Source of the DNA: a candidate division WOR-3 bacterium
GTDB taxonomy: Bacteria; Hydrothermota; Tepidihabitantia; Tepidihabitantales; Tepidihabitantaceae
Direction of reading: 5' to 3'
Length of the DNA stretch: 64,000 nucleotides
Assembly (NCBI GenBank): GCA_965649205.1
Contig: CBFGJV010000005.1
Location: forward strand, 41,918 to 105,917
A model generated the notes under the pieces. That model was not told the DNA's origin and ran no database searches. It saw nothing but the letters and a program-made list of their open reading frames with translations. Shown here piece after piece: positions 7,720-63,524 of the stretch. The stretch's first letter is position 1; the number at the start of each line of letters is the position of its first letter. The position numbers were made by a program, and so were the translations under genes.

Positions 7720-7858
7720 GGGCAGATATAAGCCTCCGGGCAAACAAAGGCTTTTTACATCTGTCATCAGTTTCCTGCGGTTAGGAGTTTTTCCGACCTT
7801 ATCGGGCAGAGGTGGAGTTTTTTCGAGAAGGCGGTCTCGTAAGTGAAGTTTTTCCGTA

Positions 7859-8182
7859 TGGGGGTCGCTCAGGGGGCTGCTCGGTAGGTGGTTGGGGGAG
7901 CGGTTCCGGGGGTAGGCTACTGGGCCGGGGGGTGGACCGGGAAGCCGGTCGGTGGGCAGGCAGTTCTCCAAGCCGCGGGGACGGCTGGTCAGATGGCCGG
8001 ATGATAGGCAGTTCTCCCTCTTGGCTGGGGATAGGTTCGGTCAGGAGGTCGGCAGGCCGCTGACAGGGCTGGTGGGGAAGTCTATTACCGAGCCGGTCGG
8101 TGAGGGGTTTACCGGGTTATTCAGGAAGTTGCCAGGGGGACGGATTGGAGAGCAGGTCGGCAGTCAGAATCCTGCTGATGTA
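7859..8182. repeat. Degenerate G-rich tandem array, 27 x 12 bp
   Basis: Units in constant phase from 7859, e.g. agggggctgctc, ggtaggtggttg, ggggagcggttc, ggcaggcagttc, ggacggctggtc, gataggcagttc, ggtcaggaggtc, accgagccggtc, ggagagcaggtc. Intergenic between convergent genes. Confidence 0.7.
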
Positions 8183-54972: not shown

Positions 54973-56022
54973 ATGACACTGGATCAGGTGCCGATTCGCG
55001 AATTGGAGCTGGCGGACGGTCTGGTGCGGACAGTTACTCCCTATGTTCTGGAATATGCCGAGGTAGAACAGCTGGCGGAAGACGTGTTCCATATCTGTCG
55101 GAGGCTTACCGATGGCGCAGTGGATGGCAGGGGAGAGCGGGAAAGAGAGTCCAACGCGGACAGCTACCCTCTATTGGCCAAGGGCGAAGTTTACGGCCGG
55201 ATGCACGTAATCTATGACCTGGAAGAAACCCGAATCAATCTGGAATTTCCATCTGACCTTGCCACCAAATTCTATCGGCTGCTGCGGGAGCAGAGAATAG
55301 TGCAGCCGGATCTGCTTGAGGTCAGACGAACAATGTCGGGAAATCTGGCCGAAACCGTGGCGGCGGTACTATGGCAGATAGGCGCCATAAAAGTGAGCCT
55401 GGGCGATTTGCGTCCGCTGTTCCAGGTGGATATGCGCAAGAATCGCAGTCCGATATACATTGACGTAAAAAGTCTGGCCAACTACCCGGAGGTCAATGAT
55501 TTCGTTCTGGGCTCGGCCGCTCTTTTGCTGCGCAAGGTCAAGTTTGACTGCATCTGCGGCATAGAAGCCGGCTCCATTGGCATTGCTGCGGTTTTGGCGC
55601 ATAAACTGTGCAAGCCGGCTTTCTTTGCCCGGCGGGAAAAACGTTATCCAGAAGCCAGCCCCTTTGAAGGTATCAAGCGGCACGAACTTTTCCGCAAACG
55701 GGTACTGCTGGTGGATGACACGCTGGTCCACGGCTGGACCAAAGCCAGGATAATCAAAGAAATACGTAACTGGGGCGGCATTGTGGACGCCTGCTTTGTC
55801 ATATTTGATCGGCGGCAGGGTGGGGAAAAGGATCTGGCCGAACTCGGGGTGCAGCTTTGGTATCTGACCGACCGTCGCGCCGCACTATCTCCCAAGATAC
55901 CACCGGACATCAGCTTCCTTACGCCGGAGGAATACCGGGAGATTACGGATTACTTTGCCGATCCGGCTGCCTGGCACGCCAAGCGCGGACTGGAATACCA
56001 CAAACTGCAACCGCCGGTCTGA
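54973..56022 (+). CDS. Orotate phosphoribosyltransferase-like type I PRTase with about 120-aa N-terminal extension
   Basis: SPIYID, GIEAGSI, RREKR, variant PRPP loop VLLVDDTLVHGWT, FDR.QGG and terminal ADP..W. Confidence 0.7.
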   Translation: MTLDQVPIRELELADGLVRTVTPYVLEYAEVEQLAEDVFHICRRLTDGAVDGRGERERESNADSYPLLAKGEVYGRMHVIYDLEETRINLEFPSDLATKFYRLLREQRIVQPDLLEVRRTMSGNLAETVAAVLWQIGAIKVSLGDLRPLFQVDMRKNRSPIYIDVKSLANYPEVNDFVLGSAALLLRKVKFDCICGIEAGSIGIAAVLAHKLCKPAFFARREKRYPEASPFEGIKRHELFRKRVLLVDDTLVHGWTKARIIKEIRNWGGIVDACFVIFDRRQGGEKDLAELGVQLWYLTDRRAALSPKIPPDISFLTPEEYREITDYFADPAAWHAKRGLEYHKLQPPV

Positions 56023-60048: not shown

Positions 60049-60069
60049 AAATCAGACAACCGTAAAAGA

Positions 60070-60094
60070 AACGGCGGGCACCCGGCCCGCCGTT
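60070..60094. terminator. Bidirectional intrinsic terminator
   Basis: 10-bp stem aacggcgggc / gcccgccgtt, flanked by an A-run and attt, between convergent genes. Confidence 0.8.
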
Positions 60095-60113
60095 ATTTGC
60101 TCGGGGTGAAGGT

Positions 60114-60704
60114 CTATTGCACCTTCACTGACCTAGCTGCGTGCCTGTGACCCGGTCCACAATCTACGACTACCACATATCCGCCCGCGGGAAGCGAGCT
60201 TAGCAATGGTCCTTCCAGCCGCAACTGCGAGCCGGCAGAGAACTCCTGACTGAGACGGAGTCTGCCGTGCAAATCATACAGCCTTACGTTGATTGGCTGC
60301 CCGGCGTATCCCTGGCTGAAACTCACCACCAGGCTGCTGCGGAAGATGGGCGGGACCACCGGAATCCGCGGCTGGTCCTCGCGATTCCCGTTGATTCCCG
60401 CCACTGGTTCTTCCAGGCGGCCGGAGCCGTCCAGCATACCCGGGCTGCCCGGCAGGTCAACGCGCGGAGGCACTATAGGTACGGGCAAGGGAAGCTCCGG
60501 CAAGCTTGGAAGCACGGGCAGAATCAGACGTTCCTCGCTTGCCTCATCTACCAGCAGAGGCTGGCCAATCCGGACAGGCGGAACCATCGGTGGTACCAGG
60601 TCCAGGTACATAGGCGGTTGCGGCTGCCTGTACTCCGGATTGATTTCAGCCAGAGCCGGAGTCAGTAGTAGAAGTAAGGTAAATAGACCGATTAGCTTTT
60701 TCAT
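60114..60704 (-). CDS. Small secreted Pro-rich protein with T9SS-like C-terminal domain
   Basis: SD AGGAGG; MKKLIGLFTLLLL signal; Pro-rich body; LYDLHGR...LPAGGYVV...VKV tail. Confidence 0.7.
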   Translation of the reverse strand: MKKLIGLFTLLLLLTPALAEINPEYRQPQPPMYLDLVPPMVPPVRIGQPLLVDEASEERLILPVLPSLPELPLPVPIVPPRVDLPGSPGMLDGSGRLEEPVAGINGNREDQPRIPVVPPIFRSSLVVSFSQGYAGQPINVRLYDLHGRLRLSQEFSAGSQLRLEGPLLSSLPAGGYVVVVDCGPGHRHAARSVKVQ

Positions 60705-60763
60705 AGCTACCTCCTGTTTTTTACTGCTGGCAGAACCAGCAGGACTCTTCCCATTATTAATGA

Positions 60764-60856
60764 CTATGCGGTGCCGGCGAGAGATTCTATTCTCTGCGCC
60801 GGGCCCGGAACTACTCCGGGCCGTCTTGTATAGTGCGTCGTTACTGTACCGCATAG
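60764..60856 (+). ncRNA. Candidate three-stem junction structured RNA or ssDNA element
   Basis: P1 60764-60774/60846-60856 (11 bp, one G.U on the + strand); P2 60775-60801 (10 bp, 1 bulge); P3 60802-60822 (8 bp). Confidence 0.5.
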
Positions 60857-61297
60857 CACTGCTTAGACACAAACCGAAGCGCAAGGATTCAGCAGTCTGT
60901 AAGACCGCGCCAGCATCCAAAAAGGAAAAGCTTTTCAGCCTGCTTTGTCCGACGCTCAGATGCGGCCGGAACATACGGATTTACAGCCGGATACACAACT
61001 GCCCGCCGCACTGGAGACAAAAGCGGGGTAGAACGGCGTAGGTAATACTTTTTCAATCAGTTATCAGCTTAGTCCCTGGTATTACCGCCCCCGAATTTGT
61101 TGCCAGCTTCTTCTGGGTGCTGTTTAGGTGCAACCTATGGGAAAACCAAGACTTGGCGCTTTTATTGCCCCTTGCTCGGCCGCAGCCCCCTAGGCGGCGT
61201 GGGCGCTGGGGACTCCCCGGCAAAACCGTCTTCTGGATAAAAACGGCCGCTTGTGTCCATATAACCTGATGAGAAGAGAGACCTAAAGGAGGAAATT

Positions 61298-61672
61298 ATG
61301 GATAACTTCTCAAGACGGATAACAATGAACCGGGGCACTATCCGCGTGCTGGAAGAGAATACGTAAAGGCGCTGAAAATCCGCTGCTGGGAAAAGCGCAG
61401 CCGCAGGCGGAAAAACTGTTCGGAAAGAGGTTTTGTCCCTGCTGGAAACCGCGGGAATGAGCAGATTTGAGACTATGCACTACGGCTGGTTTCTGCGCGA
61501 ACTTTCCCGGCTGTGGTGCAACTATGCGGGCCGGGACCTTGCCTTTCATCTGGAGCTGTGTATGCGCAAATGGCTGGGATACGGACTGAAAAGCGAAATA
61601 ATCCAGTTTCTGGTAGTGGAAATACACCTGCGGCTCAAAGCTAGAAGCGAAAACGGCAAGAAGGCGGAATGA
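61298..61672 (+). pseudogene. Disrupted small helical protein resembling the Adnaviria (SIRV2-type) major capsid protein, copy 1
   Basis: SD AAGGAGG plus ATG 61298 in frame with ORF 61433-61672, but in-frame TAA (61364) and TGA (61373). C-terminal part VLSLLETAGMSRFETMHYGWFLRELSRL...KWLGYGL. Confidence 0.55.
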
Positions 61673-61675
61673 CAG

Positions 61676-62147
61676 ATGGACCCAACAGAAAACAGACAGA
61701 TAGAGCGGGCCGTAAGTCGCCACCATCGGGCGTTGGCCAGAGGCACTGCTCCCTGCCGCGCGGACGGCGACGCGCAGGCAGACAACTTCCGGGCCGCACT
61801 GGAGCGGGCAGAACTGCGTGCGGCGCAGATGAAAGCAGTCCTGCACGCCGCGCAGGTGCTGATGGGCCAAACCCTGCTCTGGCGCAACTTCATTTTGCAT
61901 CTGGACCGGCTGGCACGCACCTGTGGAGGCGTCACGGCATCGGTGCTGGTGCGAGCAGGCCCTTCGCGGGCTGGCACGCACCTGTGGAGGCGTCACCCTG
62001 CGGTTGCGCGCAAAGGAGGCGGTACAGCGTTGGGCGGCCTTGGGTCTGGACGCAGAACTGCTCCTTCGCCTTGCCGCAGAAGTATTCGGCCTGGACGCAT
62101 TGACAGAAAAGGGTGGGAAAATAGAATGCCACAATGGGGTTGAATAG
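61676..62147 (+). pseudogene. Paralog (copy 2), frameshifted by a 61-bp insertion
   Basis: Removing one repeat plus the insert joins ORF 61676 to ORF 61923-62147, giving a 136-aa protein paralogous to copy 1. Confidence 0.7.
61908..61996. repeat. Exact 28-bp direct repeat flanking a 33-bp insert (neo-CRISPR-like unit)
   Basis: GGCTGGCACGCACCTGTGGAGGCGTCAC at 61908-61935 and 61969-61996; insert GGCATCGGTGCTGGTGCGAGCAGGCCCTTCGCG. Confidence 0.92.
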
Positions 62148-63225
62148 GCTCGCAGTAATCTGGGCGCTGCTTGTGTCCCTGAGTTGGGGCTTCTGGGACT
62201 TCTGGCCCTATTTGCAACATCAGGACCTGCTTTCCCGTTCCATAGATATCTGTGGTGAGCGATATCCGGAAATGCTTACCGAACTCAGGGTTTATCGCGA
62301 TCGTCTGCTCGCCGGGGTCCACGACGAAGACTATGACCAGGACGAAGTCAACGGCTCCTACTCCGACTATTCAGGCTACTGCGCGGTGCTTCCGGCTGCC
62401 TGGTGGCCCACGGCGCGGCGACGGCTCAACGCTATCCAGTGGGTTTATGACCCGCAGAATCCCAACAACTGGAATGCGGCTCTGGTCACCTATCCTTCCG
62501 ATCCGGCCCGGGCTTACTATATGCTTGGCCACATCATTCACAACTTGCAGGACTTGTTTGTGCCGGCGCACGCGCACATTGCGCCCCATGGCGCAGGCAC
62601 AGGTGGTCTGGTGGAAAATCACTCCTGGCCACTCTACTTTGATAACTTTGAGCAATACTGCGAAACAGGCGCCAACGAACTTGGCCGGGCCCGGGCAGAG
62701 CGCATTCCGCAGGCTCCGTTGGAAACACTAATGGTGTGGGCGGCGCGCTTTGCTGCCACAGACGTGGAATCGGTGGGATTCAGACCGTCTTTATACTATG
62801 CTCGGCCGGACAGTGCGGGCGGCTGGGGTCGGTACCGACCCTATCCTTCCGGCGGCTATCCCTGCGGTCGGGACCGTATCACCAATGCGCTGGCCGACTC
62901 CTGGTCGCTCTGGCTCGCGCCTACCTGCTGTGAATACGGAGCTGCGGCCATACGCAACTTCTGGCGGGCAAGCGTAGGCCGCAAGGAAGGTCAAATGGTT
63001 CGGTCTGAGACGCTGTTCCTGCCGACTTCGCCTATACGGCCCGGCTCTTTACTGCTGGAGGTGGCGCAACCGGTGCGGGTGCAGTTCTTTACTCCTTCCG
63101 GCTGGCTGGAGGCAGAAGCCACAGGCACCCGTATTTACTGTCCCTTATTGCCTGGGGGGCGGTGGTTTGTGCGCGTAGCGGACAGAACTGGCGCGACAGT
63201 ATTTCCGCTGACGGTTATTCCTTAG
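62134..63225 (+). CDS. Secreted zinc-dependent phospholipase C / P1 nuclease-fold protein with degenerate T9SS-like tail
   Basis: Signal peptide, then W...H near the mature N-terminus; G.HDED; LGHIIHNLQDLFVPAH; D.FE. Promoter TTGACA-16-TAGAAT 6 nt before the ATG. Confidence 0.7.
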   Translation: MGLNRLAVIWALLVSLSWGFWDFWPYLQHQDLLSRSIDICGERYPEMLTELRVYRDRLLAGVHDEDYDQDEVNGSYSDYSGYCAVLPAAWWPTARRRLNAIQWVYDPQNPNNWNAALVTYPSDPARAYYMLGHIIHNLQDLFVPAHAHIAPHGAGTGGLVENHSWPLYFDNFEQYCETGANELGRARAERIPQAPLETLMVWAARFAATDVESVGFRPSLYYARPDSAGGWGRYRPYPSGGYPCGRDRITNALADSWSLWLAPTCCEYGAAAIRNFWRASVGRKEGQMVRSETLFLPTSPIRPGSLLLEVAQPVRVQFFTPSGWLEAEATGTRIYCPLLPGGRWFVRVADRTGATVFPLTVIP

Positions 63226-63524
63226 AGCTGGCTTGCCTGCCAGCGCGGGTCGGCCATGGCTGCGTCCAGCTCAGAGCCGGCACGCAGGGCAGTGCGGTGC
63301 TGCCGGTCGTAGTCCGCACCGGCATATCTGCAGAGAAGCTGGATGGGAATGTCATCGGCTCGGCGCAGGCTTCCACTACCGTTGGGCCGCAGGGCGAATA
63401 GAAGCATGAGTAAACTCGACGCTCGATTCAGACAGAATGAACCGGAAAGGAAGCCTGCTATCGGGTATTCCCAGAAAGCTTTTCATAGAAGCGTTCCCAT
63501 TATCCCCCGCCAGCGCTCGCGCAC

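Follow-up and report, generated by a model that had tools for sequence, protein, structure and literature searches.

A broken pair of small genes in the chromosome of a candidate division WOR-3 bacterium is almost certainly homologous to the major capsid protein of the Adnaviria, gene 1 being connected to it through a profile match only. The pair is one decayed copy of a multi-copy chromosomal family found in nearly all sampled genomes of one WOR-3 order. Selection, ubiquity, synteny and the absence of viral partner genes make it highly probable that this family performs a cellular role maintained by selection. The protein is a member of a known fold; for the cellular system we found no precedent.

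A decayed pair of paralogous genes

The window, by which we mean the whole stretch of 64,000 nt that was analysed, carries the two genes head to tail on the + strand (61298-61672 and 61676-62147). They are flanked by a divergent gene (60114-60974) and by a gene encoding a 363-aa protein (62134-63225), and the wider neighbourhood consists of cellular genes. The features of the locus are as follows.

61182..61227, no strand assigned: short GC-rich dispersed repeat 5' of the promoter-like motif (BLASTN; C24, C11, C3 and C30, 84-89%)
61234..61263, + strand: promoter-like motif TGGATA-N18-CATATA, whose CATATA box is common to other cassettes of the genome
61287..61292, + strand: Shine-Dalgarno sequence AGGAGG of gene 1 (from the sequence)
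61298..61672, + strand: gene 1, type-A capsid-fold paralogue, pseudogene, 124 codons (from the sequence, L034 and profiles)
61358..61420, + strand: frameshifted stretch of gene 1 (extra base at 61358, missing base after 61420)
61676..62147, + strand: gene 2, pseudogene of a type-B paralogue with the capsid fold, 136 codons when the insertion is left out (from the sequence, L034 and profile A8)
61908..61935, + strand: first copy of an exact 28-nt target duplication (from the sequence)
61936..61968, + strand: 33-nt inserted piece, first base G; candidate ectopic type I-E CRISPR spacer
61969..61996, + strand: second copy of the 28-nt duplication (from the sequence)

When read through with X at the breaks, the two products share 23% identity over 116 residues (BLASTP E 1.5e-4 in a two-sequence search), and the profiles of their subfamilies match with an hhalign probability of 97.5% (E 5e-12). 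The sequence-only reading had described two adjacent paralogous genes, of 124 and, once repaired, 136 codons, with both copies disrupted. The paralogy and the disruption are borne out, by these alignments, by frameshifts in gene 1 and by a 61-nt insertion in gene 2, but gene 1 is no open frame of 124 codons: the frame of its ATG runs into TAA at 61364-61366 and TGA at 61373-61375. Two compensating frameshifts displace codons 21-41 or so to another frame, and this shifted frame codes for residues that are conserved in orthologues. A natural A-B fusion protein of 254 aa (L034) matches both genes, its first half aligning with gene 1 at 52% identity and its second half with gene 2 at 46%, each over 124 aa.

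A 6.8-kb contig of a relative (X1), about 88-94% alike, covers 60058-63266 with the same gene order and is free of all three lesions: it lacks base 61358, has one extra base after 61420, and skips from 61907 to 61969. Judged from its substitutions, which are listed in part, its frames would be open. A shorter contig (X2) likewise skips the 61 nt of gene 2. Because X1 carries none of the lesions and X2 lacks the 61 nt, the window copies are recent pseudogenes. No RNA data set was listed as containing this stretch. Elsewhere around the locus, the GC-rich repeat at 61182-61227 has four more copies in the genome, and a 349-aa phosphoribosyltransferase-domain protein encoded at 54973-56022 has an extra N-terminal domain with no Pfam family.

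Relationship to the capsid proteins of Adnaviria

Four sequence types were distinguished in the family: A (that of gene 1), B (that of gene 2), C (the most capsid-like) and D (short). The window pieces on their own gave nothing meaningful against Pfam, PHROGs and PDB sequences, and the Pfam scan found no PF12193 match in them; the capsid likeness becomes visible only with intact relatives or profiles. A profile of the gene-2 subfamily (A8) matched the SSRV1 coat protein (6wq0) at E 6e-5, and its best six PDB matches were all adnavirus capsids. A profile of the paralogues of the genome (A1) matched AFV1 ORF140 at E 5.7e-4, with the best five matches all adnaviral. Five of ten chromosomal proteins of the genome matched PF12193 at 15.8-21.5 bits, below its cut-off of 25.2, and one type-C homologue among the matches listed (P0014) carries PF12193 as a precomputed annotation.

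Structural comparison gave the same picture. The AlphaFold model of type C (pLDDT 96) has a four-helix bundle at its C-terminus and an extended N-terminal helical arm, and the arm, which wraps DNA in the virus, aligns with SSRV1 from residue 5. In Foldseek its best seven PDB rows were all adnavirus capsids, with TM 0.80 for 3j9x and 0.78 for 6wq0, at E values of 3.5e-3 and 8e-3; no match reached E 0.001. In VIA-align (48,161 chains) the best seven rows were adnaviral as well; they include 6wq0 (Z 13.2, rmsd 4.4, 119 aligned) and 3f2e (Z 13.1, rmsd 1.6, 79 aligned), together with 3fbz (Z 11.9), 3fbl (11.8), 5w7g_B (10.7) and 6d5f (9.6), while the best unrelated chain reached Z 8.0. These Z scores are to be read with the warning of the program that helical bundles can come near 13. 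Since the Foldseek E values exceed 0.001 and helical bundles can score high Z, our case for homology rests on the agreement of sequence and fold. The type-B domain of the fusion model also matched 3f2e (Z 13.6, rmsd 1.6 A, 78 aligned) and 6wq0 (Z 12.9).

Type A is connected less directly. Its profile (A7) found no direct match in the PDB, and it matched type B at 97.5% and type C at 95.7% probability, the match covering the bundle. In the model of the A-B fusion the helix layout of type A resembles that of type B, with a single-chain pTM of 0.54. The first 40 residues of type A are acidic, and a basic N-terminal arm is missing from it; among the chromosomal proteins tested, seven of nine have a pI of at least 9.1. 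The ESM Atlas, searched with homologue P0005, was uninformative (best score 0.81), and fold matches in BFVD to DUF732 proteins were weak (E 0.5-2).

The earlier proposal that the pair has the fold of the SIRV2 coat protein held up against profiles and, for types B and C, against structures: the models of intact relatives match SIRV2, SSRV1 and AFV1 first. Its comparison with capsids built from two paralogues is matched by a conserved A+B pair, which in several genomes is fused to one chain.

A chromosomal family of the WOR-3 order

The source genome holds 19 domain matches in 17 segments on ten contigs, among housekeeping genes. With a first profile, the family was found in all 34 other genomes of the order and in none of 166 other genomes of the phylum; with a second, 63 of 65 other order genomes had it and none of 206 genomes from outside the order did. 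The order counts are over kin and are not independent, and absence here means 'not found'. Named homologues are labelled candidate division WOR-3 bacterium (four names among the 120 matches listed), and type C keeps 65-80% identity among these 120. Copy number ranges from 2 to 22 or more per genome. In G005, which is a single scaffold, 14 matches are spread along the chromosome and several are decayed.

Some positions are common to different species and genera. Copies follow clpX and clpB in both G003 and G016, and a copy stands beside groES in G003, G002 and G123. Four type-C pairs gave dN/dS ratios of 0.08-0.15, and for three A/B pairs the ratios were 0.22-0.32. No viral partner genes lie beside the copies in the loci of the source genome, of G005 and of near-complete relatives or in the window; the neighbours are cellular. 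Likewise, in the loci that were read, the cassettes are not repeatedly accompanied by an integrase, a transposase, a replication gene, a glycosyltransferase or a minor structural protein. Archaeal hosts are a criterion of the Adnaviria; here the homologues come from WOR-3 and the flanking genes are bacterial. The ancestor of the WOR-3 order would have fixed the chromosomal family, and the birth and death of extra cassettes are observed.

These results bear on the two origins that the sequence-only reading had offered. It had rightly noted that viral genes are missing near the pair, and a search of related genomes for intact paralogues, as it had suggested, returned a many-copy family with housekeeping neighbours. 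Its first option, the remnant of a bacterial Adnaviria-like virus, is not supported in that form: what the window holds is a single decayed member of a chromosomal family that has many copies, is under selection and extends across the order. Its second option, a domesticated DNA-coating system, fits such a family, with the DNA-coating role itself standing as a prediction.

Profile matches formed 1569 clusters at 50% identity, part of which are likely viral, for example capsid domains with tail-like extensions. Five proteins (P0216, P0233, P0250, P0262 and P0266) join an N-terminal capsid-like domain to tail-fibre-like extensions, and three of them cluster weakly with WOR-3 type-C proteins. At one locus (L047:5802-7284) a family gene comes after two others, one coding for 197 aa and assigned to no family, the other resembling Pam3 gp33 (PF23984); this is the only phage-like context seen at a chromosomal copy. 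At another (L060), an ECF sigma gene and a type-C gene share a 7.8-kb contig in a bin labelled Dehalococcoidales, which reflects either mis-binning or transfer.

Organization of the cassettes

The full cassette consists of a tract of 12-nt period, a promoter-like motif, A, (D), B, an ECF sigma gene and C. The motif TGGATA-N18-CATATA occurs once in the window and in none of 100 shuffles. CATATA lies within 300 nt upstream of five of seven cassette-first genes, the window pair included, compared with 38 of 912 background genes, and we infer that the motif is a promoter. Of 47 loci, which come from about a dozen genomes and four virus-like contigs, 30 have an ECF sigma gene, its class confirmed, at a distance of 1.5 kb or less; the other 17 have no nearby ECF gene. 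In most of the 30 ECF-bearing loci this gene lies immediately upstream of a small gene.

With overlapping loci kept, 19 of 71 clusters have a tract of period 12 or 24 upstream, and 3 of 73 have one downstream. After de-duplication, tracts precede 22 of 84 first genes (10/25 of type A, 6/11 of type B and 6/48 of type C), and the period is 12 or 24 in 22 of the 30 tracts found upstream of first genes. What is conserved in the tracts is the period itself: their unit sequence varies from genome to genome, they preserve no reading frame and their lag-3 periodicity does not rise above background. We rejected the possibility that the tracts encode four-residue protein repeats, as they have no common frame and lag-3 is at background. 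That they are an order-wide feature is not supported, as none was present in 220 kb of low-copy genomes of the order. The window copy has no 12-nt tract. Outside the order no tract occurred in 796 kb, a result that is not significant because the rate in the source genome is itself low at the strict setting, where only four tracts were found. One adnavirus capsid dimer covers 12 bp of A-DNA, as stated in PMC7189273 and PMC5517147, and the period of the tracts may correspond to this footprint.

Parts of cassettes are also dispersed. Solo tracts and truncated cassette heads without genes are scattered in the source genome and in G005, where the solo tracts are 83-88% like cassette heads. The head has at least six copies in the source genome, with differing 3' ends, and no integrase or transposase was found near these dispersed heads. 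Each comprises a 12-nt tract, the CTTCACTTAC motif, the promoter-like motif and the start of gene A. One lies in the window at 7832-8008 (G000:C5:49751-49926); further heads in G000 are at C1:64.8 kb, C5:1 kb, C8:34.5 kb, the end of C10 and C20:14.5 kb.

Nucleoid proteins and sigma factors

The source genome is 98% complete, and the only HU/IHF-family protein found in it is IHF-beta-like. Two HU/IHF matches are present in 20 of 20 genomes of the other four families of the order and in 9 of 34 genomes of family f1, where 24 of 34 have only a weaker IHF-like PF00216 match (for example L030:5177-5467) and one has none. HU proper was possibly lost within family f1, and a nucleoid role for the capsid-like proteins may apply in that family. 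An order-wide replacement of HU was rejected, as the other four families keep both matches in all 20 genomes. A general linkage to HU genes was rejected too: of the 22 HU loci read, two, both of genus g17, have a family gene within about 1 kb, and another two have one at distances of 4 and 8 kb. The order in g17 is a capsid-like pair, a 12-nt tract and an HU gene (L031:6348-7819, L192:5100-6717). As RpoD and five ECF-type factors are the only sigma factors found in the source genome, it has no sporulation-type sigma, and no SASP family matched in the Pfam scans of the family proteins.

Free elements with two capsid genes

A scan of genomes returned four short contigs on which Ig-like structural genes come after two or three capsid genes, and a scan of metagenomes confirmed 118 stretches and returned 77 loci. 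Together these make 81 loci (L092, L094-L173), of which 68 carry a pair of capsid-like genes; an ECF sigma gene is absent from all 81. Several have end overlaps or tandem units, which suggests circles of about 7-15 kb; the adnaviruses described so far are, to our knowledge, linear. The elements carry Ig/CARDB-like structural genes, glycosyltransferases, a Dam-type methylase and ASCH.

The capsid proteins of the elements have 36-43% identity to type C, their profile matches that of type C at an hhalign probability of 99.8%, and several exceed the PF12193 cut-off. Because they pass this cut-off and match type C so strongly, they bridge the bacterial family and the rudivirus family, and by sequence the elements are the closest non-chromosomal relatives of the family. 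Three alignments against IMG/VR, which reach close relatives only, confirmed none of 147, 19 and 28 pattern matches, and no description of these two-capsid elements was found in the literature searched.

Three weak hints bear on their host: a Shine-Dalgarno sequence leads 77 of 85 element genes, a degenerate tRNA-Tyr-like stretch is present, and a 1.9-kb element piece was binned in a genome of family f1 (G018:C627). Among the 36 spacers of the source genome there is no real match to the elements, and no tRNA was called in 31 element loci. The DNA matches of L127, which are phylum-wide, come down to this one tRNA-Tyr-like stretch, which is too generic to identify a host. Trees recovered clades for type A, type B and both element capsids (98-100), with deep nodes at 20-67; the second tree held 58 of 134 de-replicated domains and left out the solved archaeal capsids. 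With deep nodes at 20-67, the trees do not give the direction of transfer.

CRISPR-like geometry of the gene-2 insertion

Type I-E spacer integration has a 28+33 geometry with a leading G. The frame of gene 2 changes at the exact 28-nt repeat, whose spacing is 61 nt; 28 and 33 nt add to 61 nt, the period of 34 of the 36 intervals in the type I-E array of the genome. Among exact duplications of 24-34 nt with periods of 45-80 outside the array, only two have period 61, and both are 28+33+28: one lies in gene 2, and one on C21, in the leader of a different family gene. The remaining five lie inside longer tandem-repeat regions on C20 and C22. The family makes up 0.36% of the genome, yet both period-61 events fall in family loci, an observation that was made post hoc. 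The 28-nt target agrees with the array repeat at 15 of 28 positions in reverse orientation, a score that 45 of 5000 random 28-mers also reach, and, with up to five mismatches allowed, neither the genome nor the retrieved loci contained a source of the 33-mer. Off-target integration by Cas1-Cas2 is termed neo-CRISPR in 10.1101/148544, citing Nivala 2018, and the gene-2 lesion is likely such an off-target type I-E event.

The second insertion (L022:7971-8059; G000:C21:34970-35058) resembles an off-target type I-E spacer integration as well. The array itself, of 37 repeats (L025; G000:C43:2925-6680), ends about 13 nt from the type-B stop codon of an A-D-B cassette.

Proposed function and alternatives

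We hypothesize that the family descends from, or has a common ancestor with, the Adnaviria major capsid protein. Type C, with its full basic arm, would form a homodimer like that of SIRV2, and A and B would form a heterodimer like those of AFV1 and PFV2, as suggested by their fusion in some genomes. Our model predicts that the dimers polymerise on dsDNA, each covering about 12 bp, and push the DNA to A-form, with the 12-nt-period tracts acting as phased loading sites. The sigma factor of the cassette or the shared promoter would turn the system on in stress or dormancy, and the coat would protect and condense the chromosome in the manner of the alpha/beta SASPs of spores. DNA coating with the geometry of the virus is suggested by the basic charge, the 12-nt tracts and the conservation of arm and bundle, and induction by the ECF sigma gene together with the promoter-like motif that the cassettes share. 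Counted against this reading are the Foldseek E values, the sub-cut-off PF12193 scores, the acidic type A, the patchy tracts, the retention of HU, the missing sporulation-type sigma, the scattered solo tracts and truncated heads, which look like mobility, and the 17 of 47 loci without an ECF gene. On balance, we give even chances that the family is a domesticated, inducible and protective A-form DNA-coating system of SASP-like function. That an A-DNA capsid was domesticated as inducible chromatin under an ECF sigma, and that its source was small circular Adnaviria-like viruses of bacteria, we put forward tentatively, with doubts outweighing support.

The signs of mobility could have another cause, namely a host-encoded packaging or mobilising system in which the proteins coat DNA from 12-nt tracts and yield filamentous particles or transposing intermediates. 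Such a gene-transfer-agent-like or selfish non-autonomous element would explain the spreading of at least six cassette heads with differing 3' ends, the head-like solo tracts of G005 and a copy number that varies from 2 to 22 or more, and the small elements have the same two-paralogue layout. We nevertheless consider it unlikely, since none of the mobility or virion genes listed above recurs beside the cassettes read, and some single copies that are stable, syntenic and strongly selected have no tracts. Captured coat genes might instead serve as an antiviral decoy, their dominant-negative subunits jamming assembly or sequestering the genomes of related small viruses that infect the order. The two-capsid elements, as nearest non-chromosomal relatives (hhalign 99.8% to type C), and their 1.9-kb piece binned in a genome of family f1 (G018:C627) speak for this, as do the diversity and fast turnover of the paralogues and the restriction-modification or CRISPR genes that adjoin some cassettes. 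The 36 spacers of the source genome have no real match to the elements, however, type C at 65-80% among the 120 homologues listed is conserved beyond what an arms race would lead one to expect, and defence genes are patchy where this family is near-universal; we rate the decoy as improbable.

An ECF sigma gene directly 5' of a small gene is the classic sigma/anti-sigma layout, and this arrangement is seen in most of the 30 ECF-bearing loci, so type C could regulate the neighbouring ECF sigma, either as an anti-sigma factor or as a transcription regulator, with its fold re-used for protein binding. An N-terminal DNA-wrapping arm that aligns with SSRV1 from residue 5, the many copies without an ECF neighbour and the absence of anti-sigma structures among the fold matches listed leave this very improbable. 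Finally, the window pair and several other copies are broken and related free elements exist, as would be expected of functionless debris from repeated integrations by an Adnaviria-like bacterial virus. We find this hardly credible given purifying selection, positions kept across genera, presence in 63 of 65 genomes and the fact that none of the other genes of the free elements stands beside any copy read. For the family it is largely refuted, and it holds only in that the window copy is dead.

Comparison with known systems

The nearest known relatives are the capsid proteins of Rudiviridae (SIRV2 3j9x; SSRV1 6wq0; SIRV C-terminus 3f2e; PF12193), which share the long N-terminal helical arm, the C-terminal helical bundle and a length of about 120-125 aa and give the best fold and profile matches. 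In contrast to them, the family is bacterial-chromosomal, is present in many copies without viral genes, has 16-22% identity and, in the proteins scanned, stays below the PF12193 cut-off. Two adjacent paralogues are also the arrangement in Lipothrixviridae, Ungulaviridae and Tristromaviridae (AFV1 5w7g/3fbz/3fbl, SFV1 6d5f, SIFV 6wq2, PFV2 6v7b), from which the cassettes differ in having up to four paralogue types and an ECF sigma gene and no virion genes; the A-B heterodimer is predicted. The free two-capsid elements, for their part, differ from the chromosomal family in being free, apparently circular and without ECF sigma. In Demeterviridae, as stated in 10.1101/2025.08.23.671958, the coat proteins are fused in one ORF. 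The same source treats DUF732 as the outgroup to SIRV2-like capsids; for DUF732 (PF05305), of mycobacteria and phages, the TM was no more than 0.32-0.42 across 75-84 residues, well short of what the adnavirus capsids gave.

Two systems are comparable in function or history. The alpha/beta SASPs, a functional analogue only since their fold is unrelated, convert DNA to an A-like form and are under the control of alternative sigma factors. The DVNPs arose from a viral DNA-packaging protein that was adopted as a multi-copy chromatin protein in dinoflagellates, where histones were displaced; they are eukaryotic and of unrelated fold, and the WOR-3 order mostly retains HU/IHF. PMC8801598 describes SASPs as the products of small chromosomal genes present in multiple copies, and as proteins that coat DNA and protect it. 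The capsid protein is presented as exclusive to an archaea-specific realm in PMC13700489, and adnaviruses as unconnected to viruses of bacteria in PMC10848233. We found no published report of the bacterial family, and 'Adnaviria' together with 'WOR-3' returned 0 papers, in a search that stopped short of supplementary tables and most subscription journals.

The window pair is dead, and its value is mainly as a pointer to the family and as a case of a CRISPR-like lesion, likely a natural example of gene inactivation through off-target CRISPR spacer integration. The small elements with two capsid genes are candidates for a new group of viruses, and if the source of the family was small viruses infecting bacteria, a realm held to be archaea-only would cross the domain boundary. 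An order-wide bacterial family under selection breaks the archaea-only boundary of the Adnaviria capsid and provides a cellular counterpart against which the origin of that capsid can be tested. For the bacteria themselves, it would be a possible second, SASP-independent way to protect DNA in A-form, and it may be a prokaryotic parallel to the capture of viral chromatin proteins in dinoflagellates.
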